Shown here piece after piece: positions 10,777-64,000 of a DNA stretch of 64,000 nucleotides. The notes under the pieces were generated by a model that saw only the letters and a list, made by a program, of their open reading frames with translations, had not been told where the DNA came from and ran no database searches. Source of the stretch: a virus. Lineage: Duplodnaviria; Caudoviricetes. Within the stretch, counting starts at the first letter, position 1; every line of letters begins with the position of its first letter. The stretch is taken from the IMG/VR virus record IMGVR_UViG_3300021387_001709, positions 32,001 to 96,000 of that record; one strand, given 5' to 3'. The position numbers and the translations under genes were made by a program.

Positions 10777-10947
10777 TTACATGTTGTTATCTTGTTGCGA
10801 TTTGTCATTATTTTGTCCAATTACGGGTAATTCCCATACCCTCATTTCTTGGAATTCAATTATCTTCTTTAAGTCCGGGATTTCCGGAGTCGATTTCGTT
10901 GCTCTTTGGATTTTGCCCCAGTTGAGCAGCAGTCTCCATTTATCCAT
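10777..10947 (-). CDS. Small hypothetical protein (56 aa)
   Basis: ATG overlapping the holin end; open to TAA just before the terminator. Confidence 0.35.
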   Translation of the reverse strand: MDKWRLLLNWGKIQRATKSTPEIPDLKKIIEFQEMRVWELPVIGQNNDKSQQDNNM

Positions 10948-11380
10948 TAGCTTCACCGGGGCTTGTAATTACCTGAGTAGAAGCAATAACTTCCTCAGTA
11001 GTCTCCGGTTTATTGTTCTCTTTAACAATCTTTCTCAGCGTTTTAAGGCTTTCATTGATTTGTTCATCAATAAAAGCTATTATTTCTTCCTGGTTTATAG
11101 CCCTCGAAAGCACTGGGTACTTTTCGTATATAGTCTGTATAGTCTATGCGCGCTTCACCGCCCCGGCTTCGTTCCACTGGTCAAAGTCAATCTCTGCCTG
11201 AGTAATCATTCTCAGCATAGTCTCTCTAATTTGCTTCTTAGCAATCTCAATTTTCTCCTCGTCTGATTTGCCGAGAAATGCTTTTACCTTTTGGATGATT
11301 CCGATAATCAGTCCAATATAGACCAATATCTCAACATAATGTTCATTAATAAATCGTAAGAAATTCTCTAATCCTTTCAT
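10940..11380 (-). CDS. Putative holin (LL-H-like), TAG=Gln
   Basis: N-terminal TM, AE..F...G.VKRA(Q) motif; reads through TAG at 11144 to TAA at 10940; AAGGAGG RBS. Confidence 0.7.
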
Positions 11381-11395
11381 ACATTATCCTCCTTA

Positions 11396-11647
11396 TTATC
11401 CTACTCCCGGTGGTAATTCATCATTTGTACCGTCATAGTTATTTTTTATTTTTGTTCCTTTAATATAGCCCAATATCCCAAATTCACCCAGTCCCGCTGC
11501 AAATACTGCGGCTATTAAAGAACTTGGTTCCATTAATCCACGCTCGACAATATCCAATATTCGAAGTGTGAATAAAATAAGCAGAATTGCAACCAGAATT
11601 ACCATCACATTCGAAAACTTAATTTTCTTCTTAATCTTATTAAACAC
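11396..11647 (-). CDS. Two-TM membrane protein (holin/lysis accessory)
   Basis: Two hydrophobic helices; lysis-cassette position. Confidence 0.6.
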   Translation of the reverse strand: MFNKIKKKIKFSNVMVILVAILLILFTLRILDIVERGLMEPSSLIAAVFAAGLGEFGILGYIKGTKIKNNYDGTNDELPPGVG

Positions 11648-11660
11648 TCACATCACTTCC

Positions 11661-12230
11661 TTATACTGGGAATCCATCGCGCATCCCCTCTTCATATTTT
11701 TCATTTATTAATTTCATAGCCATTGTTACGCGACCATTCTCCATTCCATTTTCTTGAAGTAATCCCTCATAAGATGAATAAACGTCCTCAATATGGTTAT
11801 ATGCTTCTATATCATATTTTCTGCCGTTTCTTACAGCATTTGCGAAATCTAATATATTCCATCTGATACTTTCTATCTCACGCTTATTATCTTCAAATTC
11901 TTTCTTTGTAATTTGTTCTTGTAATTTGTTAATAGCTTCCATTACTTGTGTCTAAGAATCTTCCATCCGCTAATTAAACTATTTGCGAGCTTCGCGAAAT
12001 TCTGCTTGTGCTTCTTTCATCTGATCCATTTCGTCCTTTAAACACGCTATATTTTCTTTCATTAAACGCCGTGATCTCATTGTTTTCGTCTCTATGCCCG
12101 TAATTTCTTGAATTTTCTTGACCAGCATATATACTGCCACCCCAACGGATGCAAGAACGACTAGAGAAATTACTAACGCACGTAAATCCAAGGATAGCGC
12201 ATATTCTAACATTTCAGCTTGTTCGGGCAT
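11661..12230 (-). CDS. Membrane-anchored coiled-coil lysis-cassette protein, TAG=Gln
   Basis: Joins track ORFs 11979-12239 and 11661-11942 in one frame through 3 TAGs; N-terminal TM; RW.ILDFAN...NG.V motif. Confidence 0.7.
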
Positions 12231-12245
12231 TAGTCTCACCTCCTC

Positions 12246-13874
12246 TCAACTAACTCTAGCAATATACTACGCAGCTACAAAACCATAAATATGTGAATTA
12301 ACACATATGTACAGCCATTCTGAACCATCGAGAGCAGTGACCTTATCACAAACCTCGACCTCATATCCTTTTTCTAACTGAGGCCATGCCACAATATTAG
12401 CATAAGAATACCCCGGACCAGACCTCACGTTAAGATTATTATCAATTGATTTACCGATGTACTGGACGGTTTTGGTGACAGTATATGTTCCATCGGCTCG
12501 CTGTTTGTTAATTGTCGGAGTTGTTGCAGCCGAAATTGGTTTAGCCGAAGTTGGTTTCGGTGAAGTTGGTTTGGTTGTTGTAGAAGTAGCTTGTTTCGCA
12601 TCGCTTCTTTCTTTAACTAGCTAATTAATTTTCTTCAGCGTTTTAGCACCGACAACACCATCAGCTTCAAGATTATATTTCTTCTGGAACTCAACAACGG
12701 CATTGTAAGTACGTTCGCCAAATTCGCCGTCTTCATCGAGGTGAGCATTCATCAGCCAGTTAAGCTTTTTCTGTATATTCTTAACCGCATCGCCGACATC
12801 TCCATACTGAATGTCGGAAGAAGATGTTGACGCGGTAGTTGTCGCGGTACCATTCCCGACGTATCGAAGTACTGCATTCCACGGATAGTTCCGGTAATCA
12901 CGAATGAGGATTTCTCGCCCGGTTTGATCGCCGGGTTGTCCGCCGGTTGCTTTTCCGAGTTCATTCACACTGGCTTCGACTTCTTTGCCGGCTCCGCAAT
13001 ACATAGCGACATGATGTACATGGTTAAGAAGAACATCTCCGCGCTACATACCGTTCCCCGTATTGAGATTGACGGTGCCGGTAACATCCTTAAAACCGTA
13101 CTTGATAAATGCCTAGTACATGTCGCCGGTATATGTAGCGCCACCTTTGGATTTGACCGGTACTCCGGCTTGCTCCCAGGCGGTAATCGTTAAGCTCGAA
13201 CAATCGTAATCCCCGCGCTCATTCCAACGATATGCCTGATCGTAACCGTGAGACGCATCTTTTGCTACTTTCTCCATAAATGAGATTGCTGATTCAATAA
13301 TTGCAGCTACATTGGAAGAACTCGATTGAGTAGTAGTTGTTGCGGATACGGGAGTTTCGGTATTCGCTGGTTTGCTAATATAGCCAAAAGCATCTGTATA
13401 TCCCGAAGCTCCATCCGGAAAACAAAAGAATGTCCAAGACGAACCATAGACATTCTTTACTTTGGTAACATCTTTTTTATACTTACTCCGATCTGTTGGA
13501 GTAAAACTAACTCCATTGTTGCTTGCACTTGCGATGTCTGATAAACAATCATATTCGTCCACGTAGGACGGGAGACTACGATTACCGTTGAGAATAACGT
13601 CCCTCACCGCATTAATTACAGACTGCGGAGCATAATTACCATTGATATACGGTTTATTAAATGATTCCGTTCCATACCAACCGGATTTCACCGTACAATC
13701 AAATGGGTTACTGTATTTCTTAGTTTGATACCGTTCATAATAGTTCAGCATATGTGACGCACATGCTCTTACTCCGGCATCATTGGAACCCTACTCGCGG
13801 TAACATATATTTGCCAGACCGCGAATTTGGGATTCTGTAAGGTTATATGATTTTCCTTTGTAAACTTCTGACAT
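12246..13874 (-). CDS. Modular endolysin: Hydrolase_2/SleB-like + NlpC/P60 + PG_binding_1 + SH3b (542 aa), TAG=Gln
   Basis: LANICYRE(Q)G...A.HMLN; GYDQ..R...DYDCSS...HVAMY; DGEFG..T..AV..FQK...L.ADGVVG..T; LNVRSGPG; one frame with ~5 TAGs, ends TGA. Confidence 0.88.
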
Positions 13875-13891
13875 TGGTTATCACCTACCTT

Positions 13892-19042: not shown

Positions 19043-19043
19043 A

Positions 19044-24062: not shown

Positions 24063-25832
24063 TTATTCCTATAATTCGCCCTAGGTTAGAAGAGTTCCGT
24101 TGTTACTCAGACTGATGGGGGTATGATAGAGAGACTAAATATCTTCCAGAGAAAGAGCGGTGTTATATATTCTAAAATCCGACATTTGGCAATCACAATT
24201 TTGAAGTGTCTTTCCTATGACGTAATAATAATCCATAGAATTACTATCTGTAATTGTGTTAGTATACACAGATTTTCCATTCTAATACATTGTAATCATT
24301 CCTTTATTATAAGTAAAAGCATAATGTGTCCATTCACCTATGGAGTATGTCCAATTATAGTGATCGAACGGATACGTCGATCCTCCCTATCTAATAGTTA
24401 ATGTCATTATATCAGCCGTGGTTGCACTAATCGTAGCAGCTATACTATATGTTCCTTGTGCAGCATCTAAAGCTTTAGTATTCTATAGAAGGAACATTCC
24501 TTCCCATTTCTTTCGCCACGTATTAAATTTTCCCCACCAGGCAATCGTAAATTCATTGCTTAAGTGGATGGTGGAAGTATTATTAATAATATATGATGAA
24601 CCATCAAATGAGGAACTTGTAAAATATCGCGGTGTATCTCCAGATGTGGAGATAGTACCAACTTTAGTAGCGTTATTCCCAAAACCACTCACATCATAAA
24701 CTACGTTTGAATCCAACCCCATAGCGGAATACAACGAATCAGTGGTAGCAGGGGTCCAAGGAGTCAACTTATCTCCAACTTCCAACTTCGGATGCGAAAC
24801 CTTCACCGTCCCAGATTTAACGCCTTGAATATAAATACCAACCAAGTGATTTGCGGGCATCGTACCTAGCAAAGTTACTGTCTTACTCACGATTCCATGA
24901 AATGATCCAGTGAATGCCTCACAAACATTCGCTCCATTACTTAACGTTTCACCAGCCCACGCCCCAACATATTGACTGCCTCCGGCTGTCTTTGCAAATC
25001 CGTCAATTTCCATCCCGACTCTACGGTATGAAGCAGTAGCATTCTCATTCCATACCACATTATCCGCATCTACTCGGCACGAAGCAGTTACAACAGTTCC
25101 TTCTGGCAGAGATGAAGTGGTTCGCATTTTTGTATTTGAGCCTGTGGTAATGGATACGTTAGAGTTATTAACGTAGTTATCTGCGCCAAAGCCTTCTCTT
25201 GACAGCGGATAATGAAGTACCAACCCTTTAGATATCTCCTTAATTTCGCGAGGAGAGAGAGCGGTATCATAAAAACGGAAATCATTAATGCTACAGTCTG
25301 CACGCTAAAGATTGTTTTCCCGGGAACAAAGCATACAATAAGTATATGTATCTCCCAAAAAAGTAGGGACATTGCTATCAGTATATAACAATTCGCCATT
25401 CTTATACCATTTAAGAGTGTTTGTTTTATCTAACACAATAGCGATATGTGCCCATTCTCCTAATGCCGGAATATAATTGTATTTATCATATATCTATTTT
25501 TTAGACTCATTGATGTAATCATAAATATGGAATCCGATTGTGTTAGCGTTTGAATAACACATACCCACATATTCATTATTGCCATTAGAAAATGCAAATA
25601 CCCTATTCCAAGCTCCATTAAATGAGTTAACTTTAAGCCAAAGAGCTATACAAAATTCACTATTGATTGTAATTGAACTATTTAAATTAATAGAACCATT
25701 ACCACCACCGTTGTAACATTTTCCGACTTTCCCATTTTCCCACGTTCCGCCTCCAACCAATTGAGGCGAGACATTAAGCGATCCTTGGTTTTCGACATTA
25801 CCATTTAATGGAAGCCATAACTATAGTGCCAT
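24063..25832 (-). CDS. Concanavalin A-like lectin/LamG domain protein (589 aa), TAG=Gln
   Basis: MAL(Q)LWLPLNG...NQG; W.HIA; INDFRFYD.ALS..EIKEISKGLVLHYPL; MSDFRIY.T.LS; one frame, ends TAA. Confidence 0.85.
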
Positions 25833-26778: not shown

Positions 26779-29700
26779 TTAATTAAATACGAAATCCAAA
26801 CAGCCCAGTGTTTTGTTCATTACGAGCTTAACAGTGTTAGCAGCGTCAGTAGTCCCCGAGCCAATCGTAAGACTTCCAGGAACAGCCGTATTACCGGCAG
26901 CATCCAGTAACGTCATTTCGTGAACAACTGCATTTGACGTATTATATTGCCTAGCCTTAATCTATTCGCCAGAGCCGCCATCGTCGCCTGTGGCAATCTC
27001 TAAAACAGTATCTGTTTCACCCGTTCCGAGCACACGAATCCATCCTTCGTCATTTCGAGTAGCCGGATTAGAAAATGCTACTCCGTCGGCGAATAATCCG
27101 CCGCGAGGAGCAGTTGATATCTCAGTAACTTTACCTCCGGTAACTGTCATTTTGGTTGTTGATAAATAATAAGTTCCCGTAACCGCCCCGGTAAACGTTG
27201 CCCCACTAAGTTTAGCATAAGTAGAACTGATGGTATTCCCATCCCCATCTTGCGTAGCCTTAGTAGCAGTACCGGCAACGTTGGCAACCGTTAACGTATT
27301 GGTAGACGGATTATATTTGAAATCATCGTCATAGTTTCTATAAGTTTCTGCCGTACTGTCGGAGAACCATACGTGACGATCGGCATTAGTAGTACCAGCA
27401 ACTCCGGAAACGCTAGATGCGGTAGTTGCAGTGGTGGCATTCCCAGATATACTTATTCCCCATGTGCCGGACGCACCGGTACCATCTTTTTTAACGGTGT
27501 AAGAAGTATAATTATCGGAATCTATCATTGTTTTCCATGCAGTGGTATTATCCAATGCTTTCGCACTAAAGCTTCTATAATAAATATATCCATTAGAAGA
27601 AAAACCAATCTATGAATCATAATTTCCACCATGTCTATTTATTGTGATAATAGCATTTGAATTATCAGTTCTAGCAAATATACCAGTCGGATTACTAACG
27701 TTATAACTAAATCGTATTTTACCATCCCCAGGATGAGTAATCATAGCTGGGTCAGCTTCAAGAGTACCAGTAAACAATTTTGTTGTCGTCGCAATACTCC
27801 ATCCAGCCTACGAACTCGCCGACCCAGTAGTATCTCCGGTTAATGTAACCGATTGATTAGACGCAAACTTCGTTGCAGTTCCGGCATTACCAGTCACGCT
27901 AGTAATATTCGGTAATGTCAATGTAGTAGTACCTTTCGTCGTAATATGACCGTAAGCATCATATGTTACCGTCGGAATATTAAAGCTACCACCATTTGTA
28001 AGCGTTCCGGTAGCTGTTCCCGACGCAGTTCCGGCAGTAATCGCCGAGTTTGCGTGTTTAACGGTTGCAATACCTGTAGATTTATCAAGTGTAACAGATA
28101 TACCGTTTGAACCGACAATGTTGTTAGCTTCGATTGTACCGCCTGATGTTACGGTGATACTGTCAAGTTTGGATTTATCCTCCGGACTCATCCAACCCTA
28201 GGCTGATGTTGTAGCATTATCGGCAATTTCCGCAATCGACCAGCTGACATTACCAGACCAATCTATTGCTTTCGCCGTTTTTCCCACTGTAATAGTACGC
28301 GAATTTAATTTTCCGCTAAACGTCGTCGCCGTTACAGTTCCCGGAAAACTGGTATTACCGGAAGAATTTAAAAGATACGCTTCTCGGGCAACCGCACTAC
28401 TTGTATTATATTGTCTTACAACAATTGCTTCATTTGAGTCGTCTCCGACGGCTATTTCCAAAAATCCGCTGTTCGCGGTCTCTTCAACATGTCTTATCCA
28501 ACCTGAATCATTATTTGTATTCCCATTATAAGGATCTGCAAACGCAATACCATTGGAATAAATACGCGTTCCTCTTTTGCTTCCATTATATTTTAATTCA
28601 GTTGGCATACCGCTGGTTAATGAAAGCCTATTGTAATTTCCTCCAGCCGCGGAGTTCCCTTGCACCCAAATACCGCCGGATTGGGATATGAGTTCTCCCG
28701 TCATCGTTCCGCCGGACAACTTCAAATATGTGGAATTAATTGTATTACCATCGCCATCCTAGGTTGCTTTTGTTGCACTCCCGGCAGAATTGGCATAATT
28801 GACAGATTTATTAGCATCAGCAGTATTATCAACGTTGCTAAGTCCAAGTGTAGTCTTTACATTAGCCGCACTAATTGCCCTCAGTTCATATCCATCCCAA
28901 GCCGCGAACCACGGAGTCGCAGTCCAATTTGCTGTTAATCCAGATTTAGAATATGCGAATGTGGTAGCAGTACCATTACCACTATCAAATACCTTGGTTG
29001 ACCCACCGGTGATATTGCCGGTTAAATCCCCGTACAATCCATTGGTAAATCTTCCGGCACCCGTGACAACAAGATTCCCGGCGTTAAGTTCAACCGTATT
29101 AATAGTGTCGAAGTCATTATTATCGAGCTTGCGGTAAGTAGTTTTAATGGCATTTCCATCCGCATCATTAATCGCCGATCCCGCAGTAATAGAAGACTAA
29201 TTTACCCAAGTTGGAGCAGCATTCCCATTACTCTTAAGAAGTTGTCCGGAAGTCCCGGCAGTAATCTGGGATAATGCATTAGTGGCAGAAGCATAAACGA
29301 TTCCCCATTGTGTCCAGCTGGTTTTGCCAGTTCCACCGTAACCGACGCCAATTGTGCCGACAGTTACCGCAGCACTGCCGTCAAACGACTGACCATTAAT
29401 AGATAATGCGTTAGTAACCTTCTTAGCGACATTAGCGGTAGCATTAAGAGTACCGGTTACTGTAAGATTACCATTAACAATGCCGCCGGTAGTAGATATA
29501 TATTGTCCTTCAACGTCGCCGATTGCAGCATAACGTTTATTCAGCGGTTGACCCTGCTCATATATATTACCCTCATTATCCACTTGGAAAAAGTATGTCC
29601 ATTCCGAGTCCATAGTCGGTATATCATTTCCGGTATATTTTCGTCCGTAGAAAAAAGATTTGTTATATGTCGTCACTGCACTGTCAGTAGAGGATCTTGC

Positions 29701-37800: not shown

Positions 37801-38513
37801 ACATTTTTTGCAAGATTTCGGTATCCAATAAATATATTAGTATCAAAATCGAGGTTCTCTTTTCCGTATGCGTTAACTGTTCGATTAAGATAATCAAAAA
37901 TGAATATCAATCCCAGTCTGGGAGCAACAGTGTTGGTCATTATTGAATATATATTTGCATTATCAACTTCAATGATGGGGATTTGCATTTTATAAAGACC
38001 ACGGTCAATATGTCCAATGCTCCAATATGGCAATTTAGTCAACATTAAGTGAAGAAATGACAATTCCGGATTATCGGGATTATAGAACGTAACAAACTCC
38101 TTCGCTACTCCTAGGTCATTTATGTTGTCAGTTGCCAACATTTCCAGACTGTCTTCTTTTCCACAGTTTATTTTTAACCCTATCCAATCTTTTTGTTCAA
38201 ATTCTTTTTCAAGTGAGTAAGCCTACACTTCTTTATATTCATAATTTCCATCGTTATGAACTGTCGGCTCCTACATTTGGAAAAAACCGATACCCTCAAG
38301 TAATAAATACATATATATCTTAAGGTCTTCGTATCCATTTGATTCAATTAATTCTCCGTCTATAGATAAATAACGATCTACATTAAAAGTCAACTCATCG
38401 TAATCTTTCACATACTGATGGAAGTCAACAGAATTAGTTTGCAAACCGTTAAGAACTGTTCTGATTTTTAAATCCGGAGTACATAAATATATTTTTTTAA
38501 CGTCCTAAATCAT
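34869..38513 (-). CDS. Tail-tip/baseplate hub (Tal-like) protein (1214 aa), TAG=Gln
   Basis: Seven track ORFs share the frame; follows Dit; AYSLE.E, YTRFRVRG, LSEVSRPQY.F, LRII.IEY. Confidence 0.8.
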
Positions 38514-42400: not shown

Positions 42401-45400
42401 GTAGTTCTCGCATTGTATTTGCTAATTCTTGAATTGCAGTATTTGCTTCACGAGCTTTATTAATATAATCAAGGTAAGCCCGTGCGCCTTCAACAAGTGC
42501 GGCATCGTCCGGATTAGTTGTATCAATAATATCAAGGTTATACTCTCCGGCCAATAATTTTTCTCTATTGAATTTAGTCCAAATATTTGCAGTCTTTTTA
42601 TTTCCGTCTTTATCGGCATAAGAGTAATTAGTTGCCAATTGCTCTGCGAAATTTGCATATGTTGTAGCGGCGTGAGAGTTAGCTTTAATTTCATCCTAAA
42701 TAGCTGTAATTTCTTTGCGGAGAAGTTTTCCTTTAGTTACTTTATTTACGTAGTCGGTAATCTTATCGGCAAAATATTTTGTTTTGTCCGCGAAATACTG
42801 AAGGCGAATTTCCACATAATCAAAGATTTCCTATGAAAACTGCGGTTTATCTTCCTCTTGCGGTTTTTCATCTCCGCCGGTGCCTGCGTTTCCGCCACCG
42901 GTGCTTGCTGTTTGAGTACCGCTACCAACGTTTACGTTGTTGTTATTTCCGCTAACACTAACTCCGGATTGTCCACCACCGCCGCCGGTCCATGTAAATG
43001 TTCCACCGCCTCCGGGAAAGGCATTCGTTAATTTAGATAATCTGTCAATTGTCCCATAAGCATAACCTCTGGCAGAACCAATAACTTTACCAATTCCGCC
43101 GTTCATACCGCTGAGTATTGCCCTAAGCTATGAATTGTTGAAAATTATATCTCCGGATTTTAACTGCATAAAATGAGCGCCGCCAGGAATAATACTGAAT
43201 TTACCGTCTCGTACTAATCCCTCCGGACCAATTTCTCCTACTAAAGCAGTTTGATCTTCTTTTAGCGCAATATCTCCCTTTGCATGAGAATCATATTCTT
43301 CATCTTTCAGAATACCTTTATCCGTTATCGTCCCTTTTGCAAATGTCTTTGATATATTATTTAAAGTTCCGGTTGCTCTGGCAACTGATTGAACAGTACC
43401 GGTAGCACCAGATTTAGTTTTCCCGCCGCCTCCTGACTAGACCGTATTAACATGGATTGTTGCTGTCATGGCATTGATTCTCGACACAGCGGCATGAGCA
43501 GCAAGCAATGCATTGCCGGTTGCAGCACCGACATGTATCATTGGATTTAATCCTTCAATAGTATTTGCAGCAGAACGAGCAGCAAGAATAGCATTTCCGG
43601 TCGCAGCTTCTACATGCATTGTCGGAGTCATTCCGTCAATTGTACTCTTTGCTCTGTTAGCGGAAGCAATCGCTTTGTCTGTTTTTGCTTCGACTTTCAT
43701 TTCCGGTTTCATGGAATCTATTTCTTCTTTTACCGAATCAACCTAATCCAACGCCTCTTCTGGATTAACTTTAATATCAATTGGATCGGTGTCTCTGATA
43801 CCATCAATTGCAGTTTTTAACGATTCAATCTATGAGGTAGCGCTATCAATATTTAATTTGACTGGAATATTAGATGCTTCAGCTTTTAATGCATTAAGAG
43901 CAGTGGTAGCAGCATTGGTATCAAGTGACGCTGACGTGGAGGATGTCTACTTATTGCCACCACTAAGAAAATTAGAAACAGCACTAATTGCGCCTCCCAC
44001 GGCGTTTTTAGCTTTCTGAATTACTTCAACTATAGTAACTTTTTTTGTCGCTGGTTTCTCCGCCTCCGCTTGAACTTCATCCTAACCAGTAGCTTCAAGT
44101 TTAACTTCCTTTGTGTACTCCTCGCCATTAATCGCAGCACTAACAGCTTCATTAATCCCCTAGAGAGAACCCTCATCTAATCTTACGGGCATAGATATTT
44201 CTTTTCCGTCGAGAGAATCTATCATTGCTTCGGCGGTTTCAACATCAGATGTATCTATATTTAGAGTGGCATCAAGAGTTCCATCATTCATCGATTGCTA
44301 TAATTCTTCTAATGAACCTCCGTCTTCAAGATACTGTTCTATTGCAACTCGCACGTTATACTCCTACTGGGTCTTTGCTTCAAGCTATTCAAGCTATGCG
44401 AGTGCTTCTTGACCGCCTTCTTCTTCAACATTTATTTGAGCCTTCATCTAGTCTATTTCAGCTAATTTATTCGAAAGTTCGTCCACGCTCATTGTCGCAG
44501 CATCAAATTGAGTTGCTCCCTCAAATTGAGTACCTTTAAATAATGCCTCCACCTTATCGGTAGCAACAGTAGCACTATCGCTAAATTGATTCATACTGTC
44601 GATTGCTCCGGCAAAATCAATTACGCCTAAAGCGGCGAGGATGTTCACCAACTATTCGCCCTAAGCAGAAGATAAGTTTGCTTCTTTAGCAATACCCTCA
44701 AGGGCATCCTCAGCAGCTTCGAGTCCCTTAACATTATAGTCTCCATCTCCCAGCTTAATCTATTTGAGTTCATCATACGATATCCCTTTAAGAGCGTCCG
44801 CATATTCCATAACCGCATCTTTTGCGTTCTGAATTTTAGTTTTGCCTGCTTCAAATGCGGAGAACTCAGCGGTGTGTGGGTCTATTCCAAATGCTTCAGC
44901 GCCAAGAGGAGACTCCCACGAACCAATTTTACCCTCGAGGTCTTTCATAGCGGCATTATAAGATGCTTCATCAACCTCGAAGTCAGCATTTACTTTAATT
45001 CCATAATCATCGGCTAAATCTTGTGCCTCACGGAGAAAACGATTTGCGCTTGCTTCGTCACCGCGCTCCATTGCATCATCATAATATGATTTAAGGTCTG
45101 CAATACTACTCTTGAGATTCTTAAGGTTGCTTACGTATTCCTATGCTTGTCCTCGCTAGAAATTTTGAGTAGCTGTCTGTACGGCATTCAGCTATCCTTG
45201 ATACTGATCAATGACATCCTACTGAATCGCCAAATCATCGGCGCTTGCGCCTTCACGCTTCATTTCGGCATATTTAAGCTATGCATTGGTAAGCTCATTA
45301 GTCCATTTCTATGTCTGAAGTTGAGCGTCTTCCATGGAGGAAACGAACGCACCCATTCCGCCATATTCTTCGGCTTTGCCAAACATGTCACGGAACCATT

Positions 45401-48400
45401 CTTCGCCAGCTCCAAATTGATGGGCGGCCTTGGCTAAATCAGTAAAGTTCATTACCAGACCTTGGGTACCGTCTTCATAAGTTTCAAGAGTAGCCATACC
45501 GGCACTCTGTAAATCCATCATGAATTTATGTACGCCCTGGATATCATCGGTCATATATTTAGAGAATTTATCATAGTTCTGTTTGAATCGCGTCGGGTCG
45601 GATAAGCCCCATTCGTCAAAATAAGCGGCACGAGTTTTGTAATCGTCCGTGCCAATCAGACCTTTATCCCACATTTCTTTTGCTTCTTTGAGATAATTCA
45701 TTGCCTTGTCATAATTTGCACCTTGATTCACGGTTTGATCCGCAAGTGCAATTTGACCATGCTGTGAGAACTGCTCCATAAGCTACTGGTATGCGGCAAA
45801 TACTTGCGATTGTTGTTGCTGAAGATCTGCAAGGTCTTGTTTCAGCTTGTTAATACCAGCAGTATTTATATCACCGCTTGCATTTTCCATGCGATTAAGT
45901 GCTTCGGTAGTTTGATTGATTTTTGTTGTTAAATCATTGTTAGATAATTCATACTCTTGTTGCGCGAGACGCTGTAACTCAACAACATTAGCTTTAACAC
46001 CGTCAGTTGTATTATAGAATACACTGGATAAATCAGCAGAAGAGCCTAAATCACTGAATGCGGTAGATATTGCTTTGATTGTATCCGGAGTTATACCGGT
46101 GGGAGTAGCCATTTCTGAGAATGCGGACTGGATAGCAGAAGAGAGGTCTTGCGCTTGAGTAAGTAATAAATTACGAGCCTGATCATCATAACCATATGCG
46201 TCAGCAAGTGCTTGCACCATGGATGATTCGTTTTGGCGGATTTGATTAAGTGTATCTTGGTATTCTTGTTTGTTATTTCTAAGCGCAGGAAGTTGATTCC
46301 TCAATTCTCTGTTTTGGTCTGATAAATTCTTTGCTTGCTGTCTGGATAAAGTCGCAAGATTTTTGTATTCTTTTTCGTTAGCTTTGATACCTTTCGCCTA
46401 GTTTACGGTAATTTCATCATTAATTGCAGAAGCTTGGTCTTGGATGTTTGTCATCTAATTTTGTAATACATTAAGATGAGATTCTGCTTCATTGTACATT
46501 GGGGAAGTGTATTTCTGGAGACCGGATATAACTTCTTCAGCATCTAAGGCTTCCTAGTACATGCTTGCTGACTACTCAAGATCATATATATCTGATTTTG
46601 GATTTCCATATCTTTGAGCAAGATCAAGGGCGTCAGACATAATAGATTCCTAAATTCCAATCTGTTCTTTTGCATTATTCGCCTATAACTTTGCAAGATT
46701 ATGAGAAATATATTCTCCTCTGTTTTCAATATCGGTGCGTTCTTTTTGTAACTAATCTCCGTTAGCTTTGGAAGTGGCATAATCCGTTTTTAGATTATTT
46801 AAATCTGTTTGCGCATTTTCTTTTCTGGTTTCTATCATTTCTGTTTCCGTGCTTGAAATATTTGCCAGAGCCTCTCTATAATCAGCTAATGCTTTATCAT
46901 ATGCTACCTAATCACGTCTATCAGCCGCTTTATTCATCCTTCCAAGTGCGGTATTAGCCTTATCGTGATATGCCTAAATATCTGATTCATATAATGGCAT
47001 GACACTATTATTAAGTTCTTCCTCAGTTAAACGTTCGCCTTTTGCTTGACGGTTCTCATTTCTTGCATTTATTAAGTTTCGCTTTTGTTCATTTTTCTCT
47101 AAAACGGCTTCGGCTTCACGGTCTTTAATAATCAAATCCCATTCAATCTTTTTATGATTATACTCAGCTAAAATTTGCTATAATGTTGATTCTGCCGTAA
47201 TCGTACCATCAAGCGTCAATTCCCAAAGAACATTATAATTAAGTTCTTCGCCGTTCTATGAGAGAGCAGTTAATACATCATTATATTTCTATTCATTAAG
47301 ATGAGAACCTGTCTAATCTGTATATGAAAACGTTTCTTTTAAACTGTTTTTTGCTGTTTCGGCAGAAACAGAAAGGTTGTCATAAGATTCAATTAAATTA
47401 TCAATATATGCCTGTGATGCTCTTGCAGCTTCCGGTGTGAGAGGCCCTTTATCAGCCTATACTTTTTTAAACTCTTTGATATATTCCGATAACTATTTAA
47501 CCGCAGCGTTATTAATGCCTTCAAATGAAAAATCATCCATACTTGGCATAGCATCTTGCAAATTTTTCATTTCTTCTGCTGTAAGTTTACCGTTTTCACG
47601 GTAAGACTCTAGTGCATTATTCAGTGATGATAAATTAGATTCATACTGTGATGCACTTTTTGAAAAATCTTCGTCATTGAGAATATCCGCAAGAGTACCA
47701 GTTCCAGCTTCTTCTTTAATCTAGGATAACTGGTTCAAATATTCTCTGAGGGATTCAATTGTATTGCCAACAAAATTAAAGTTTTGATTGTTCATCGCTG
47801 TCTGGGCAATTCTTTGTTCTTTTTGCGTTAAACTCTGTATATCATCCCAAGATATCTTGCTTTTGCCTTGTTTATAGACATTTTTACCATTAGCATCTTG
47901 AGTTACCTCGCCGCCAAGTCTTTCGAATATAGCAGCCCGAGTGTCAGTAGCATTCCAATGAGTATTACCATTTTCATCTTCGTCTTCGTACTTATATCCA
48001 AGAGATACAAGAATCCATTGTTTTATTTTATAATCTTCTGTACCTTCTCCACCCGGAAAAATTTCATTAAGAGTTTCATTTATCTATTGTCGCATTTCCT
48101 CATTTGTAGCGTTGTCAAAATCAAAATCAAATATTTTTTGCATATCTATAGTGTCAACGTCACCGTTTTGCAAAGATCTTTCTATTGGGGCTATAATTCT
48201 ATTTTTTAATTTTTCATCAAAATTATCTCCGCCACCTAACTAGTCAAATAATGCGTCATAATTAAAATCTATACTATTTAACATAGTTTCGATTCCAGAT
48301 TGTATTTGCTCTGGCATACGTAAATAAGCTGGATCCGTCTCTAACATATCCATAAAATTAGGTAAAAATTTTGAAATCCAATTACTCTATTTACTCTTAT

Positions 48401-51400
48401 TTAACGCATCTACTGTACTCTAAGTAGCGTTTATTCTATCAGCTAAATCATTCTAAAAAGCAGTATAAACATCTTGTACCTTAGAAATATTATCTTTATT
48501 TACCTCAATCACGCCGGTGACATCATATATTTTTGAATATTCCAGACCGGCTTCTTCCATCATAGAAATAAAGGCATTTTCCGCATCTTCTTGCCCTTTA
48601 AAATTAAAAATATTTCCTTCTCTCTGTCTCCCGGTTTCTATCGGCTACTAAGCCTAAGTTAAAAGCCGCTTATATGTATCTATAGCATTCTATTGTTCTT
48701 GTATTTCCTCGTCTAAAGTTTTATTGGTTTCTTCTATATTCCCAATAATATCCGGCATTCTTTCTTTTAATGCGTTTGCGTTCATTCTGTTTTGTGCTTC
48801 AATTAAAGCGTTTAAACTATCCGTAGCTTGCTAAGCATTCTTACCTAAATCAACTAACGATTGCCCACTATCCGTTACACCGGTTTTTAAGGACGGAAAT
48901 GTATCGGCAAGCTATTGATTAATGGCTAAAAATTCCTCATAGTCATCAGTGGAAAGAGAAAGATTTTTAATTTGATTCCCATTCATATAAACTCCACTAC
49001 GGAGCTCATTATATCTATCTTTTGCTTTCGTACCAACTTTATTAATATTGTCTGTTTGTTCCCTTATCTCTCTAGACTCAGTAAGAGCCTCTTCTCCCTT
49101 TTTAATTTTATTTTCTCTTTCGTGAATTTTATTATCAATTATATTAAATAAGCCAGAAACAACCCCAGTAACAAGCATAGACAACCCAGCTGTGGCGGCA
49201 AAAGATGCAATGCTTGTAACGGCATTCCCTAAAAACCCTCCAACACCACCGAGAAGTGTAGTACTTTTTCCTATTTTTGATATCATTTCCGTAACACTGG
49301 CAGTTTCTACGTTTAATCCTCTCATATTAGTAAGTAAATCGCGGACGTCTTCTGTAGCATTTTTTAATGATCCACCTAGCGGAGAAACCGTATCCCAACC
49401 AATCGCGTCCTTAAATAAAACGTCCTAAGAACCCGTTGGGATTAGCGTTTGTAAATACTTTATAGCATCTTTTCCTCTTTGAGAATTGGCCGTAAAAATA
49501 CTTCTAAAAGCCGTGGCAATACTCCCAGACGCATCGTAACCATTAGTGAATTTTGTCATCTAATCTTTTATAATTCTTCCAAATTCCCAGTCTCCCATAC
49601 CGTTTTTACGGAACAATCCGTTTCCGGTAAACTGAAGGAATCCACCGATTCCGGCTCCGAGAATTCCGCTAAGTCCGCCGAATGCGTCTACTAATTGCGT
49701 AACCACTTCAACTGCGGAAGTGCCGAGATCAATGATATCTTTAAGCCATTCGCTGTCAATTGTTACTGTTGCTAATTGTTGTAATCTATTTTGAAGCTAT
49801 GCCATTTTCCCTTCTACAGAATCTAACTATGCATTAAGTTCGTTTTGTGCCGACCCTTGTGAGTTCATTAGGGAGTCTTGATAGACGCTCTTTAAGAGTT
49901 CAGGGTTACTGAGCAGCGAGGATGCTGCAGCCGCCCTTGTTTTCGGAATATTGCACAAATTACGCAACAATTTGTGATTATATTTTGGTTAATTTATACA
50001 GTCAAAATATAACTCTTACACTTTCGCGTAAGTCTAGACCATTTTTTAACCCACGACTTAACGTTTGGGTCACACCTTTTCGAACACCATTTGCGATTGT
50101 GTTCTACTCCTAAAGATTCAGATATTCAGGATTTCCACCTTTATTTTATAACTAATATGTATAATAGCATTAGTATTTCTGAATCCCAACACGGGGATGG
50201 TCGTTGAACCTTTACCCTCGACTTAACTGTTTGTATGGTGTACAAATAACGTTAGGGTACTTGGATGCGAATTAGCCACGTATCTTTAAATTATTATCCT
50301 CTCATAATCTGATTTCTCAATTATTGTAGTATAAAGCTTTAGGCATTCAACGCATTTAAATGTGTTCTATAAATATGTTTCCATATTTTCAGGCAAAATT
50401 TACCTCAATTATGTTAAACATGGTTCACAACACCATGTGATTCGTAATAAACGAATCTCTTACACTTTCATGCAAGTTCTGACCATTTCTTCACCCTCAG
50501 CATCATCTGTTAGGGGCATACCTTTTTGGTGTACCATAAGTTTGTACCCTACGATTATTCATAATCTGGTCGATGAACGTTCACCAATGTATAATACAAA
50601 ATATACATACAGGTGCTTCGATGCAAGAACAGCCAATCTTTATGTTATAAAACCATCATAATATATTTTCATTATTATTGTGGTATAAAGCTCTAAGGCA
50701 TTACCTGCAATTAGATATGTTCTTTATATATATTTCTATATATTGTGGCAAGCCGTTTGCCACCGTTTCAAGTAATAGCGACTATCTATTGGTGCCCAGT
50801 TTCTTATCTTCCTCGCCGATTTCCTTAAATACTTCGGCGATACCGAGCATACGCTCATAAGTTGTTTTGTAAGTACCGTCATCATTAAGTATATCAAAAC
50901 CTTTATATCCGTTTGATTGCACTTTTGTCGCGTCAAGAATCGTCTGTCGCAGCTTCGATTGTGTAGTAATTAAACCATCGATTTCTTCGCCGGCTTCTTG
51001 CATATCCTCAACAGATGTTCCACTCAATCTCAGTGAGATTGTCTTAAGGGATTGACCAACCGTGAGAGGATCTTGAAGCACGGCGTTAGCAGCAGTAGTA
51101 AGAGCTACAGCTTCGTCAAATGAATCGCCTGTAACTTGTAATGTACCAGCAGATTTCTGAAGTGACTCAGCTAACTCTGACGTACTGATTGCGTAGTTAT
51201 TCAAGCTGTTACTTTCGGATAATTATTATCCTACTGACCATTTAATAAATGGCGCATAGTCGTTTCCGGCTATGTCTATGCCTTCATTTATTCGCATAGT
51301 TCAGACTGTATATTACATCCCTCACCAAATAGGAGAGTAGGATGGATAGCTTCAATACATATGTTACCATATATATCCCGCAGTCGTTACGGTACAACGA

Positions 51401-54400
51401 AATAGACATCGTCTTACCTCGGTATCACCCTCTGTGGGCTTCTACCGATATAGCTATCTATAGTTGTATTTACTACAACCTAACATATTACTATGTTATT
51501 AGGCAAAATCTACCTATATAATTTAACTTGTCGATGATTTCCGATTTGTCAAGATCTTTATACGCTTGGCTCATTGCAACAAGAGATTCTGTTGCCGCAT
51601 TAATATCCTAAAATTCAGATATGTTAAGCAAAATACTTGACTGCTCCGCACTTTTTTGTGCTTGTTCAAATGATTCACCAAGCCTTAACCAGTCAGCGGT
51701 ACTTTCTTGGATTTGCTTAGATGTTGTTCCGACACGATCGGCAGCCTCAAAACTTCCATGTTGCGCGAAATCTTTAAGAACACTAAGTGGTTCATCAGAC
51801 ACTTTTCGCATTTCCGTAAGAGCAGTATCAAGTTCTCTAACGATATTAACGCCTTGTTTAGCAATATTGATCACTTCATACAAATCTGCGTATGTAAGTA
51901 AATATCTCGCCATTCCCTTGAACGAACCTTTAAGGGTCTCTCCAAATGATTTACCGACATCGCCGGCTTCTGTCGCCTGGGTTTTTATCCGCTCGAATGC
52001 AGCAGCGATTTCGTTAAGATTACCGTCGGACACACCATTTATTGCGTCTTGAAGGTTTTGAATTTGTGGGAAGTATTCGGTAGCAGCAGAATTTTTGTAC
52101 ATCCATTCTTCCATACGACGTTTAAGTGTGGCGGCGTCTTTTTCATCGGCGAGAGAGTAGTACCCACCACCTGCGCGTTGAACAGCTTCATTCAATCTAC
52201 CTCTAAAAGATAATACCTAATCCTAAATTTGATTACGTCTATCAGGCGAAGCTTTTTCATATTCTTCAGATGTTTTAACCAAATTTTCAAATTCATCATT
52301 TAAATCTTGTAAAACCTTAACTCCATCTTCGTTCCAATTACCTTTGCCTAATTTTTGGAGTACTTCGCCCATTTCTTCGAGAGTATCAGTAAATGCGGAC
52401 GTAGATGCGTTGCTCATAGCACTATCGAATTGCTACATTAGCTATTTTAATGAGTCTGATGCCTCACCCTATGCCAAAGCAAAAAGACCGGTTTTTTTAA
52501 TCGCATCATCATAAAAGTTACTATATCTATTTAAAAAAGCCTACTCCGAGTAATCTAACATCTGACCATTCGACTACTTCTATTTTATTTGCGCATAGCG
52601 TTCCGCGTATTTAATAAGTGTTTGATATCCACGCTCAACATTTTCAAATTCATAATTCTCATTATCATTAAATGCAGACATTCCTGATTTTAAAACGTCC
52701 ACATCTTCCATTTTTTGTCTATAATCATCAAGTATTGAATCGGGAACTGTCCAAGTCCCACCTTGATTTAGTTTATTAAGCGTAGCATATGCGTCCTCCG
52801 CCCCCTAGCGAAGTTTTTCCATAGTATCTACGGCTCGTTGAAGTTGATTGGCGTTAATCTCTCCAAGGTTATATAAATCCTACGCATTGGACGCTCGCTC
52901 AGCAGCGTCATGGTATTTCTGTATCTTATCCATTTGTTTGCTTGTAAATTTAGCTTCTTGCTAAACGATAGCCTTGGTTAAATCCTCCTAGGATTTCTAA
53001 GACCCTTCCTTTGACACATTATATTTATCTAAAGCCGAAGACGCCTACTCCTCCGTGATTTTCGCCTCGTTTCTCATTTCAATTATCTTTTGTTTGGCCG
53101 TATCCGCGGCTTTTCCCGCATCCTCCAATACTTTAACAATAGCCCTTTCTTGATCACCGGAAACAGCTTGTCCTTTTGCCTAGTCTGTTAACATTTTATT
53201 AAACTAATTTCGGGCTTCAATCGCGTCTTCAATAATTTTTACTTGCTAATTATACTCCTTCATATTCTCATCGGCTTCTTTTTTATCTTGCGCGGCTTTT
53301 ATCGCATCTCTGGATTTTGCACTACCGCCACTTTCAGCTTTTTCTAAATCATTAATGGCTTTGTTATATTGATCTTCTGTAATATCGTCTTTAATTTGAC
53401 CAAGTTTTTCCCTAACGTTGACCGCTTTTTCAAGTGCCTATTCTAATCGCTACACAGCTTCAGCCCATTCATTTGTTTTTTTTATTTCAGGATCGGTCTC
53501 TGATTTTGCAATGAGTTTATTCATTTCTGTTTGTGCTTTAAACAACTCATCAATTATTTTCGTTTGTTCTTTATAAGTTGCGTCAACATCATCAGTTTTC
53601 GCCTTCTATTTAGCTCCTTCTAACTTCGCTTCAGAATCGGTAATCTTTTTTATTCCCGTGGCCATAACTTTATTAGCGTCAATATATTGCTACTCAGTTA
53701 TAGCTCCTTGTTTTCGAAGTTCATTCAAGGTTTTGTTTGATTGTATAAGATTGTCTGTAGCTTTTTTTTCTCGTTCTATCGCTAACGTCATCTAATCGTT
53801 GGAAACAAATTTGCCAGCTTCTTGATCAGCTTTAAGCTTATTAAGTTCCGATACGGCATCTCCGTATTCACGAATGGCTTGCATTGCTTCTTTATATTGG
53901 TTTTTAACATTTTGGTCAAATTCGTCTTGTTGCGCTTTGCCCTATGCCTCATAACGCTTACGCCCCATATTATATTCGGTGTTACGCGCTTTTTGGTATT
54001 GCTATTCTCCCATAGCAATTGCCATAGCATCTGATAATTGTTCTTTATATTCTGCATCTACGTCCTTAAAACGTTGCTGAATAGATCTTAACTTATTATT
54101 AAATTCTTCTAGGTCTTTAGATTTAAGATCGGAACCGATATTATCTTCAAGATTACGCAGTTCACTTTCTAATCCTAAAGTATCTGCATTAGACTTCTAC
54201 ATCTTACGCATAGTACTATGTATATCAGTAACTAATTTATCTTTGGCAGCTGTTATGCTATATGGGTTAAACTGAGTGTTTGCTTTCTAATCTTTTATAG
54301 ATTGTTGTGCTTTTCTTTTATATTCATTAATTGCGACGCCTAATTCTTCCTTAATAGTCTTAGGCATTTCTTTCCCAGCATATGCGTCAAAATAATCCGC

Positions 54401-60377: not shown

Positions 60378-60893
60378 TCAATTAAACGTGTTATCTAATA
60401 TTGCATTCAATTTATCTAAATCTATTTTTTCAAAAATAGGATATAGTGTAGCTCCGATTAATTCCCCAAATCGTTCTACTTGTTTCTTAATAAAACTATG
60501 CGACTCATATTCGTTTGTTATCACATCGTTACACTTCATATTAAGAATAATTTTGAACTCATTTAAATCTTTTTCATCAATCATAGACACAATATCATCA
60601 AGCGCCATAGATGCGTCTAATTTATTATATTCATTAAGCCCATCCTTAAAATTAATATCAATATCCGTATACATATCTACAATACTTAAAAATGTAAACA
60701 TATGTTTTGCGGTAGAATTAACTTTAAAATTCCCATTCTCATCATAATAAGAATTATTAATAATTATCTGAGATCGAACATCTTTCTCCTCAAGAGGGAT
60801 ATAAGATTTTACAATATGTTCTTTAATAAATATAAGACGTTTGTCTGTTTCTTCAAAATTATCATATAATTCCATAAATTCATCAAATTTCAT
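60378..60893 (-). CDS. Hypothetical protein (possible tail assembly chaperone)
   Basis: MKFDEF start after AAGGAGA; no TAG; AT-rich. Confidence 0.65.
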   Translation of the reverse strand: MKFDEFMELYDNFEETDKRLIFIKEHIVKSYIPLEEKDVRSQIIINNSYYDENGNFKVNSTAKHMFTFLSIVDMYTDIDINFKDGLNEYNKLDASMALDDIVSMIDEKDLNEFKIILNMKCNDVITNEYESHSFIKKQVERFGELIGATLYPIFEKIDLDKLNAILDNTFN

Positions 60894-60960
60894 AATCTTT
60901 CTCCTTATAATCCAATCTATATAAACTCGTAATTTATCATTACAAATAATTTTCATATCA

Positions 60961-61001
60961 AAAAATGGGGTTAGAGAAAAAATAACATTTTCTCTAACCC
61001 C
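60961..61001 (-). terminator. Intrinsic terminator
   Basis: Perfect 14-bp stem GGGGTTAGAGAAAA/TTTTCTCTAACCCC with U-tract on the - strand. Confidence 0.75.
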
Positions 61002-61096
61002 TATATAATCAAAATACAAAGCACCGTATTATACAATTCTATAATTATAATTGTGGCAAACCATCGATATTATGTTTTCTTAATTAATATTCATTT

Positions 61097-61537: not shown

Positions 61538-61549
61538 TACCTTCCCTCC

Positions 61550-62020: not shown

Positions 62021-62058
62021 AAATAATTCCCCCTTACAACTAAACAATTAATTATTAA

Positions 62059-62820
62059 TTAGTTACCGCATCCACATCCGTAGTTATTCCCACAATTACA
62101 GCCAAACGGCTGAGGAACTACGTATGCGGGGATGGGTGAGGGAGCAAGGTATCTTTCAAGTGCTGCCGTCTGCGCTTCATTGTTAGCAAGAATAGCCGCT
62201 GTCTGCGCATCCTGCGAACCTTTAAGATTAGCGAGATTGAGCTGAGTCTGGAGATTTGCGTTCTGTGTTTTGAGTGCTTCAATTTCTTGCTGGCAAAGTT
62301 TGTCCTGAATGGACTGGATTCCACCATTAATGGTATTAAGAAGTGCGTTAGTATTAGCAGTGTTCATTGCCATAATGTCACGAACTCCGTCATTTACAGA
62401 CTGACGATCTGCGCATGCTTCGGATGCAATCTGAGCACCGAGATTGGCTACGGCCAACTAATTATTGCAACAACACTGCTACTGATTCATAGCGATAGTG
62501 TTCATCTGATTTGTAATACTTGCAAGGGTATTTGCACGAGAAATTTCCGCATTACCGAAACCGGTAGTGACGGCAGAAGTAAGACCATTCAGACTATTCA
62601 TAACAGCCATCTGGTCAAATCCGGTCTGAAGCTGTTCCTATGTTGCGTATCCGCCGGACGCACAGCCGTTATTTCCAAATCCATTTCCCCAGCCGTTATT
62701 AGCAAAGAGAAGAAGAATCAGTAACCACCAAGCACCGTTATTATTTCCACCAAAACCATCATTGTTGTTTCCAACTACTGCTGCGAGATCTGCAGCGCTG
62801 AATCCTTCACCATTGAGCAT
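62059..62820 (-). CDS. Conserved phage protein with Gly/Asn-rich TM N-terminus, CCC motif and coiled coil (253 aa), TAG=Gln
   Basis: AAGGAGG RBS; SAADLAAV, GAWWLLILLLF..GWG, GFDQ, QQCCC, P.PAY.V..P.GC; joins two track ORFs. Confidence 0.8.
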
Positions 62821-63004
62821 TGTAGCATTCCTCCTTTGGATAAAATTATTAATTAGTTGTAATATTAAAATACTCCATCCATTTAATCCTTTTAACCCAA
62901 ACATAATATCATTAAGAAACAATTAAGCCTTGCCACATATTGGTAATTTTATATAACGTTTTAAAGAATATATATAATTAATGCTTTGTATTCCAATTAT
63001 CAAG

Positions 63005-63286
63005 TTACTGTTGCTACATGTTTGTAGCAATCTGCTGGGCATAATTTAGTTCATTCGCCCTTCCATTATTCATCAAATATTTACAAATCATCTCCGGATT
63101 ATTCCGAAACTGTTGTAAATCATTGTACTGTTGCCGGTTGATTTTACCATTATTCAACATTATATCTAAAATAACTCCCGGATTTCTGCTCACCTAAGCA
63201 AACTGATTTAATATATTACCGGAATTATTCTAAGGCTGACGACTCGGCATATATCCACCAAATCTATTAAATAAACTATTAGCCAT
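63005..63286 (-). CDS. Gln/Asn-rich small protein (93 aa), TAG=Gln
   Basis: TAATG coupling; NP...L..ML.NG.I..QQY motif. Confidence 0.7.
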
Positions 63287-63855
63287 TATTTATTCCCCTT
63301 CCTATAATTAGAATTAGAATTGGAATTATTCTATGGTTTACCAAAACTGGTTATTCTATCTTCAATACCGGTAACCTACTTGTCAAGATTACTAAGCTGA
63401 TTATTCACCTAGGTCAACTAATCTTTGGTAACAAAATCCTAAAAAGATTCCAATTGTTTAGTGATAGAAGAGAGCTGTGTAGTAATATCATCCAGCTATT
63501 GCTTTGTCACATACTCCGGAGTTTCTACGTCTTTTTCAGAATTGTCAACGCCTCTTTCAGTGTAATCCAATACAGTAATCTGTGGTTTCCCCATTTGATC
63601 TATGTATTTGATATAAACAACTTTTTCATCCTCGTCCCACAAAGCCACAGGAATTCCGGGCTACAGATTATTATATCCGTCGGCAGCGGTTCTGCCTTTA
63701 ACCCATATCATGTTTCCGATCTGCGGCTGCTGTTGATAAACCGGATTAGTCATTGTCTGCGGAACTTGATAATACTGTTGCCAATTCCTCTGAGGGTAAG
63801 GCTATTGATAATTATTCTACTGATAACCATTCTAAAATCCATTAAAAGCATCCAT
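63286..63855 (-). CDS. Gln-rich conserved phage protein (189 aa), TAG=Gln
   Basis: AAGGAGG RBS; Q/Y/P-rich N-terminus mixing CAA/CAG/TAG; IWVKG...LWD.....YIK..D..G.P....LDY. Confidence 0.75.
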
Positions 63856-63858
63856 AGA

Positions 63859-64000
63859 TTATTCCTCCTTCTACCAATAATATGTTACAATTTCGTCGGA
63901 ACTATCCCAGCTATCGTATATGCTGCCCATGTCTACCGCAACGGCATGAGTTCCGGTAGCTACAATATAATGTCCGTCAGAATGTTCCTATGCGAACTGT
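63859..64000 (-). CDS. Partial (3' end) conserved phage protein, possibly peptidase-like
   Basis: ...FA(Q)EH.DGHYIVATGTHAVAV..G.IYDSWDS..E.V.YYW(Q)KEE-TAA. Confidence 0.65.

Follow-up and report, generated by a model that had tools for sequence, protein, structure and literature searches.

In-frame TAG codons behave as glutamine in the contiguous late arm of a tailed phage of about 190 kb

The stretch of 64,000 nucleotides (nt) analysed here (the window, whose positions are used unless genome positions are indicated) comprises bases 32001-96000 of the single 189,811-bp virus record IMGVR_UViG_3300021387_001709, for which CheckV estimates a completeness of 98%. The source is a tailed phage of about 190 kb, probably with a Lachnospiraceae-type Firmicutes host. 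Two converging gene arms make up the window. A plus-strand arm fills the first 10.4 kb, all real genes from about 10.9 kb to the window end lie on the minus strand, and the GC skew flips its sign at 10-12 kb. The minus-strand arm carries virion, tail and lysis genes, and in these the stop codon TAG occurs in frame and behaves as a codon for glutamine (genetic code 15). An initial annotation had proposed such recoding for a span of about 53 kb beginning at 10777. The recoded span is real; however, it starts at about 10940 and runs about 22.6 kb past the window end.

Coding cover was determined over window 10777-64000 with greedily selected, non-overlapping open reading frames (ORFs) of at least 100 amino acids (aa). 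The standard bacterial code (translation table 11) gives a cover of 46.5%, which rises to 92.9% with TAG as sense, a comparison that had been suggested as a check of the recoding, whereas TGA or TAA as sense give 55.0% and 66.1%, respectively. The plus-strand arm shows no gain in cover from recoding. Under table 11 the minus-strand arm appears as a row of short ORFs, the longest having 427 aa. The initial annotation had described nearly every one of these ORFs as ending at TAG and resuming in the same frame; TAG terminates 20 of the 33 arm ORFs of at least 150 aa. Reading TAG as sense fuses the frames into ORFs of 3516, 2795, 1843, 1221 and 1214 aa with 67, 70, 12, 8 and 19 TAG codons, respectively, and full-length homologues of portal, tail, tape-measure and endolysin proteins are regained. 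The 53 ORFs of the complete late arm contain 282 in-frame TAG and no internal TAA or TGA. The 29 recoded genes of the window end at TAA (20) or TGA (9), and a Shine-Dalgarno-like motif is found at 20 of their 29 starts, compared to 23 of the 219 starts at which an ORF would resume after an in-frame TAG. The claim that true gene ends are TAA or TGA followed by a ribosome binding site holds for these genes and fails for the tape-measure gene, which is split by introns: the TAA at 51488, taken for the end of the 2795-aa ORF, is located inside a group I intron and ends no gene. Three TAG-containing peptide motifs from which glutamine had been suspected are present on the minus strand (25832-25800, 21210-21190 and 61603-61589), and in a glutamine-rich gene pointed out at the same time (63286-63855) the in-frame TAG codons are indeed mixed with CAA and CAG. 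We conclude that the minus-strand late arm uses TAG as sense over its whole length, with a signal far beyond chance. The idea of real stops in a decayed, mis-assembled or pseudogene-bearing arm draws on the fragmented appearance under table 11, but it is already effectively refuted by 22,929 codons interrupted by TAG alone and never by TAA or TGA, by the same pattern in at least three independent contigs, by third-position-biased substitutions together with 91 TAG positions conserved in the relative introduced below, and by the full-length portal, tail and lysin homologues restored with TAG as sense.

For the identification of the amino acid we used a relative of 202 kb, IMG/VR UViG 3300031867_000003 (G001), whose late proteins are 80-90% identical. 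Codon alignments comprised 34,078 codon pairs, with TAG masked as X so as not to steer the alignment. TAG was conserved opposite TAG 91 times. Among the 233 changed TAG pairs, 100 have a glutamine codon as partner, followed by glutamate (23) and lysine (17), and the one-step neighbours TAT/TAC, TGG, TTG, TCG and AAG are rare. TAG codons of the window face CAG 27 times and CAA 19 times in G001, and TAG codons of G001 face CAA and CAG 27 times each. Since CAA, which is two mutations away from TAG, is as common as CAG with its single mutation, selection on the amino acid and not mutational proximity is indicated. An empirical substitution matrix derived from these alignments yields log-likelihoods of -604 for glutamine, -974 for glutamate and -996 for lysine, which places glutamine about 370 units ahead. 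Two further relatives with protein identities of 58% and 49% again have glutamine as top partner, so that it leads at three evolutionary distances. Homologues showing another residue at TAG had been named as a finding that would overturn the glutamine assignment; in the alignments examined, glutamine comes out on top.

More distant proteins were compared for the 1214-aa minor tail protein with its 19 TAG codons, the residues being read from pairwise BLASTP columns. In 112 homologues of less than 60% identity, glutamine is the commonest residue in the TAG columns (15% against a background of 3.7%). At TAG codon 81 it is present in 110 of the 112, including a Blautia-associated copy readable under table 11. 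A log-odds profile similar to that of Codetta, a type of test proposed along with the initial annotation, was built from 111 homologues of less than 55% identity. It recovered 46 of 46 sense codons correctly and assigned TAG to glutamine, the sole positive residue (+3.6; glutamate -5.6, lysine -13.1). The genes of the relatives are recorded as translating only with TAG as glutamine; the Blautia-associated homologue translates under table 11. Taken together, the comparative evidence singles out glutamine and supports that TAG behaves as this amino acid.

A genome-wide map confines sense TAG to the minus strand of a contiguous region of 76 kb, from 42.9 to 118.6 kb of the genome. In this late arm the density is 12.3 TAG per 1000 codons (282 in 22,929), and within the window TAG accounts for 30% of the glutamine codons of the arm. 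The 22.6 kb beyond the window contain the portal gene, other virion protein genes and more late genes. In the next 16 minus-strand genes, at 118.6-134 kb (exonuclease, PhoH-like and others), not a single TAG is found in 4,010 codons. Elsewhere in the genome, TAG is limited to the initial codons of ORFs that were extended too far and to small ORFs of doubtful reality. The 76 long table-11 ORFs outside the arm end at TAA (50), TGA (24) and TAG (2), and both TAG-ended ORFs are probably spurious antisense ORFs. TAG is shunned as a terminator genome-wide, and its use as sense is restricted to the late arm. The plus-strand genes at 349-10383 have no genuine in-frame TAG and give identical ORFs under table 11 and with TAG as sense. 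Two integrase-family genes, at window 9181-10383 and genome 96,944-97,960, are both free of TAG.

The features of the window are compiled in Table 1. TAG density differs strongly between late genes, with 53 per 1000 codons in the small glutamine-rich protein, 19-25 in the tape-measure and 9 in the endolysin. Homologues of the tail proteins carry names from Blautia and Lachnospiraceae, and over 93% of its length the portal shares about 27% identity with its nearest counterparts from cultured phages, which are large Bacillus and Brevibacillus siphophages. Two minus-strand genes of the arm lack TAG altogether: 18182-19129, encoding a tail-fibre-like protein of 315 aa with 11 CAA/CAG codons, and 60378-61019 (213 aa). 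Given the share of TAG among the glutamine codons of the arm, its absence from the former is unlikely to be due to chance (about 2%). This gene may have been imported recently from a standard-code phage, or it may be needed before the switch.

Table 1. Coordinates, strand and characteristics of features in the window.
Feature	Position	Strand	Characteristics
Standard-code contrast arm	349..10383	+	NAD-dependent DNA ligase, formate/nitrite-transporter-like, anaerobic ribonucleotide reductase NrdD, tyrosine-recombinase-family gene; Pfam matches
27-nt palindrome separating the converging plus and minus arms	10739..10765	.	opposite-strand self-match in relative G001; GC-skew sign change
Late arm with TAG as glutamine (code 15), part in the window	10940..64000	-	29 genes, 227 in-frame TAG in 16,437 codons
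3'-most arm gene	10940..11380	-	substitutions by codon position 41/29/68 (third-position bias), against 52/25/42 for the overlapping plus-strand ORF
Endolysin, 542 aa, 5 TAG	12246..13874	-	NlpC/P60, endolysin-like domain, PG_binding_1
Laminin_G_3 (lectin-fold) virion protein, 589 aa, 9 TAG	24063..25832	-	contains the first of the three TAG motifs
Tail fibre or host-specificity protein, 1843 aa, 12 TAG	26779..32310	-	tblastn: tail fibre/tail-lysin genes of Streptococcus and Enterococcus phages
Tail protein, 827 aa, 7 TAG	32368..34851	-	phrog_3267
Minor tail protein, 1214 aa, 19 TAG	34869..38513	-	phrog_6211; family used for the glutamine assignment from distant homologues
Tape-measure, last predicted exon	39420..49943	-	phrog_4211; ends with TGA at 39420-39422; junction from intron-less G001 allele
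Predicted group I intron 3, 458 nt	49944..50401	-	RF00028, 34.1 bits, E 1.9e-6; absent from G001
Predicted 4-nt micro-exon AGGT between introns 2 and 3	50402..50405	-	G001 reads straight through the equivalent bases; spliced frame open
Predicted group I intron 2, 353 nt	50406..50758	-	RF00028, 40.8 bits, E 1.8e-8; 5' boundary from the reading frame only
Tape-measure, predicted exon 2, conserved core-like segment	50759..51201	-	comparison with G001, open spliced frame
Predicted group I intron 1, 310 nt	51202..51511	-	RF00028, 19 bits, E 0.06; G001 continuous here, junction in frame; holds the TAA at 51488
Tape-measure, predicted exon 1, 2788 codons	51512..59875	-	phrog_4211
Small glutamine-rich protein, 189 aa, 10 TAG	63286..63855	-	highest TAG density in the window

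The two largest ORFs of the arm and a frame of 173 codons between them all belong to the tape-measure family phrog_4211. Judged from family membership and the alignment with G001, the two giant ORFs are exons of one tape-measure gene and not separate genes. The predicted junctions 51512/51201, 50759/50405 and 50402/49943 result in a spliced gene of 19,335 nt (39420-59875). Its single open frame of 6,444 codons contains 137 TAG, is free of internal TAA and TGA and closes with TGA. All three intron matches score below the Rfam gathering threshold. G001 is continuous at the sites of introns 1 and 3, both of which it lacks; a distinct insert, peculiar to G001, is located 75 nt further on. Assuming about 1.5 Å for each residue, a tape-measure of this size predicts a tail length close to 1 µm. 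Four more group I intron matches were obtained at genome c108430-108787, c125355-125606, c104639-104869 and 163215-163331 (67.3, 45.4, 36.1 and 28.3 bits, respectively). With at least seven group I intron copies, the phage is unusually intron-rich.

Decoding of TAG calls for a tRNA with the anticodon CUA, and the initial annotation had recommended looking for one in the rest of the genome. ARAGORN at default settings and the Rfam tRNA model, applied to the whole genome, delivered only tRNAs for Pro(UGG), Leu(UAA), Met, Gly(UCC) and Gln(UUG) and odd tRNA-like genes, none with CUA. At a lowered threshold, and only then, ARAGORN detected a tRNA(CUA) gene in the late arm, 16.9 kb past the window (genome c112928-113000). 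The gene has 73 nt and lies in an intergenic gap between late genes; its G+C content is 71% in a genome of about 40% G+C. It shows a 7-bp acceptor stem with a weak A1-U72 pair and the discriminator G73, a glutamine-like acceptor end. The anticodon stem is rich in G-C pairs, and the canonical loop CUCUAAC includes U33, the anticodon CUA and A37. A third relative, G002, has exactly the same 73-nt sequence. The anticodon arm is found again in 13 other tRNA(CUA) genes of viral contigs, many of which have U1, G73 and CCA ends like those of tRNA-Gln. A weak 1-72 pair, G73 and U35 are identity elements of glutaminyl-tRNA synthetase (GlnRS). As tRNA(CUA) possesses them, its glutaminylation by the host is plausible, and these features suggest that it serves as the decoder of TAG. 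Many Firmicutes lack GlnRS and make Gln-tRNA via glutamyl-tRNA synthetase (GluRS) and GatCAB. If this applies to the host, tRNA(CUA) would have to be charged by the same route.

At the syntenic site of G001 (loci L006-L016; c165002-164680), an unrelated tRNA(CUA) of 87 nt takes the place of the 73-nt gene. It is split between U35 and A36 of the anticodon loop by a group I intron of 231 nt, whose P1 helix CUCU/GGAG places the typical U-G pair at the splice site, and its long extra arm ends in a UUCUGA loop, a copy of the anticodon loop of tRNA-Gln(CUG). With the intron removed, this tRNA is called by ARAGORN at the default threshold. The literature searched makes no mention of an intron-split suppressor tRNA.

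Three other candidates were dismissed. A tRNA-like element at genome c118636-118732, 22.6 kb past the window, combines a canonical T arm with a GG-containing D loop and bears CUA in the middle of a loop of 7 nt. It was dropped as a decoder, having A33, a pyrimidine at position 37, a weak G-U-rich acceptor stem and no Rfam score at E<=10. The element sits precisely where standard genes give way to recoded ones, at the arm's head and just upstream of tRNA-Pro(UGG), and is preceded by a hydrophobic mini-ORF of 31 codons. It is also present at L021 5590-5680 and L038 1-70 and is nearly invariant in four contigs despite differing tRNA-Pro genes. Pattern scans of viral and metagenome contigs returned the same relatives and one contig of 7.7 kb, which is too little variation for a covariation test. 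The second candidate, a tRNA-like gene of 93 nt at genome 165018-165110 (plus strand; Rfam 41.8 bits), cannot decode because of a 26-nt hairpin insert in the D loop and an 'anticodon' loop of 4 nt; it belongs to the tRNA cluster outside the window and is conserved in G001. Finally, a tRNA interrupted by the group I intron-like element at 163215-163331 was considered, and ARAGORN with introns allowed found none.

The tRNA data bear on two explanations which we regard as highly improbable. One is that TAG is sense for a residue other than glutamine, such as Glu, Lys, Tyr, Trp, Leu, Ser or pyrrolysine. Glutamate and lysine are the next commonest partners of TAG, and the usual D- and T-loop motifs are missing from tRNA(CUA) as they are from tRNA-Pyl; the tRNA of G001 has a long extra arm like class II tRNAs. 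However, the likelihoods lie far apart, the profile is positive for glutamine alone, with lysine at -13, and Tyr, Trp, Leu and Ser, whose codons are one mutation away from TAG, are rare partners. The extra arm in G001 bears the glutamine-type UUCUGA loop and no feature of tRNAs for Leu, Ser or Tyr. Just as little can be said for a host that itself reads TAG as glutamine, so that the arm simply matches it without any phage-driven switch. We know of no bacterium with code 15. The absence of detectable phage genes for a release factor or a synthetase would fit such a host. Early and middle genes entirely without TAG beside an arm so rich in it would be unexpected there, the phage has a tRNA(CUA) of its own, and a homologous tail module in the Blautia-associated contig uses table 11. 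Moreover, Borges et al. predict standard-code hosts for phages of this kind.

Very probably, these observations are best explained by a late arm of virion, tail and lysis genes written in code 15, with the phage tRNA(CUA) as the putative reader of TAG and with recoding as a putative translational timing lock. Early and middle genes would be translated by the unmodified host, which is able to do so since the genes for replication and nucleotide metabolism on both flanks are without sense TAG. Late transcription would yield the recoded mRNAs together with tRNA(CUA), which presumably is charged with glutamine by the host's own route and would out-compete release factor 1 (RF1). Once charged tRNA(CUA) is abundant, TAG would be read through and the structural and lysis proteins completed. 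Full-length late proteins would thus appear only after tRNA(CUA) has built up. As TAG is almost never a terminator in this genome, the switch would cause no harmful read-through. The same timing model was proposed by Borges et al. (bioRxiv 10.1101/2021.08.26.457843), and the lack of TAG in both integrase-family genes is consistent with it.

Several points weigh against this explanation. With 137 TAG in the tape-measure, a suppression of 99% per codon would finish only about a quarter of the chains. Searches with PF00472 (release factor) and PF00749 (GlnRS-type synthetase), in which positive controls worked, gave no match at E<=1 in the 98%-complete genome, so that a phage gene of either kind, which the initial annotation had also advised looking for, was not found. 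RF1 would have to be overcome without a phage release factor 2 (RF2). Because the usual GG and T-psi-C motifs are absent from its D and T loops, tRNA(CUA) receives no score from the Rfam tRNA model. The score of glutamine in the profile is modest, because TAG is mostly found at variable positions. In the comparison with the standard-code Blautia-associated tail module (34% identity), glutamine is just one of several top partners of TAG, and some database homologues were themselves translated with TAG as glutamine, which could slightly inflate the glutamine counts. In addition, TAG is densest in the tape-measure and the glutamine-rich gene and not in the endolysin, which puts timing as the selected function in question.

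This uneven density also speaks for an alternative in which recoding is driven by the phage but is no timer of late genes or lysis. It could be a by-product of the acquisition of a suppressor in a TAG-poor genome, provide protection from co-infecting elements or host defences, or serve elements that rely on a helper able to switch the code. Some late genes are without TAG, and tRNA(CUA) is embedded in the recoded arm instead of lying upstream in a standard-code 'code-change module'. We consider this alternative unlikely, as a regulatory partition is fitted both by the abrupt change from standard to recoded genes, which occurs at 118.6 kb without a change of strand, and by the two TAG-free integrase-family genes. 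Tentative, and less likely than not, is the assumption of an exchangeable suppressor-tRNA cassette at a fixed site of the late arm, compact here and intron-split in G001, combined with a phage factor that neutralises RF1. A tape-measure of 6,444 codons with its many TAG points to almost complete reassignment and hence, on this assumption, to such a factor. If it is true, the reading of TAG in G001 would depend on RNA splicing.

Outside the recoded arm, the plus-strand flank includes a gene of the formate/nitrite transporter family (3445-4050; PF01226, E 6e-26). The tyrosine-recombinase/integrase-family gene at 9181-10383 (plus strand) shows 20/15/85 substitutions by codon position, a third-position bias. 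Just past it, at the junction of the arms, a fragment of 56 nt (10524-10579, plus strand) resembles the 5' two-thirds of tRNA-Pro(GGG) (Rfam tRNA, 20 bits, E 0.013); it may be the remnant of an attachment site. The palindrome between the arms is probably a bidirectional terminator.

A late arm in code 15, which we favour here, places the phage among known recoded gut phages. Code 15 has been described for crAss-like, Lak, Jade, Sapphire, Agate, Garnet, Amethyst and Topaz clades (Borges et al., bioRxiv 10.1101/2021.08.26.457843), and metaproteomic proof of recoding is available for crAss-like phages (Peters et al., PMC9523058). The initial annotation had referred to such recoding in gut phages and its enrichment in genes for structural proteins and lysis, which agrees with Borges et al. 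All features of code-15 phages that we checked in the sequence are present: interruption of frames by TAG only, alignment with glutamine, confinement to late genes, avoidance of TAG as terminator and a tRNA(CUA) gene. As in the phages of Borges et al., in-frame TAG is limited to structural and lysis genes, the standard code fits the early genes, integrase-family genes are TAG-free and a suppressor tRNA(CUA) is encoded by the phage. A suppressor of this kind occurs in about 40% of the reported TAG-recoded genomes and is typical, not obligatory. No synthetase was found, as in most reported code-15 cases. Unlike in the phages of Borges et al., the suppressor is located within the recoded arm and is unusual in its D and T loops, and no RF2 was found. 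The code-change module of Jade, Lak and Agate phages combines a suppressor tRNA with a synthetase and a release factor, whereas here neither of these two proteins was detected. The genome size of 190 kb and the Firmicutes-type gene content resemble the large recoded clades that infect Firmicutes. These clades have been described with several dispersed modules; in contrast, all late genes of our phage are assembled in the one contiguous arm.

Among individual phages, Phassvirus phAss-1 from the human gut has a genome of 136 kb, TAG in 41 ORFs and three suppressor tRNAs (PMC10607447). It shares with the phage described here the gut habitat, the recoding of characteristic phage genes and a suppressor tRNA of its own. 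However, nucleotide similarity is lacking, as a megablast search with 20 kb of the arm returned nothing from 50,697 phage records. The nearest cultured portals are those of the Bacillus Tsamsa/Thrax/PBC2 type, Brevibacillus Sundance, SPbeta-like and Lactococcus 949-like phages, which have large genomes and a very long tape-measure in common with it. These large Firmicutes siphophages are only remotely related and, as far as annotation shows, use the standard code.

The recoding of TAG to glutamine in late genes of gut phages is already established (PMC9523058; PMC10607447), and its principle is not new. More unusual are the exchange of the tRNA cassette for an intron-split suppressor in G001 and the very long tape-measure gene, which itself is split by introns. 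For practical purposes, annotation with table 11 fragments about 53 kb of the window and 76 kb of the genome and misses the genes for tail, portal, capsid and lysis; the record calls for annotation with table 15 in which introns are considered. Our analysis extends the known recoded phages by a large siphophage of Firmicutes type whose recoded late genes form one contiguous arm, and with a single protein that needs 137 TAG to be read it provides a demanding case for the completeness of codon reassignment.

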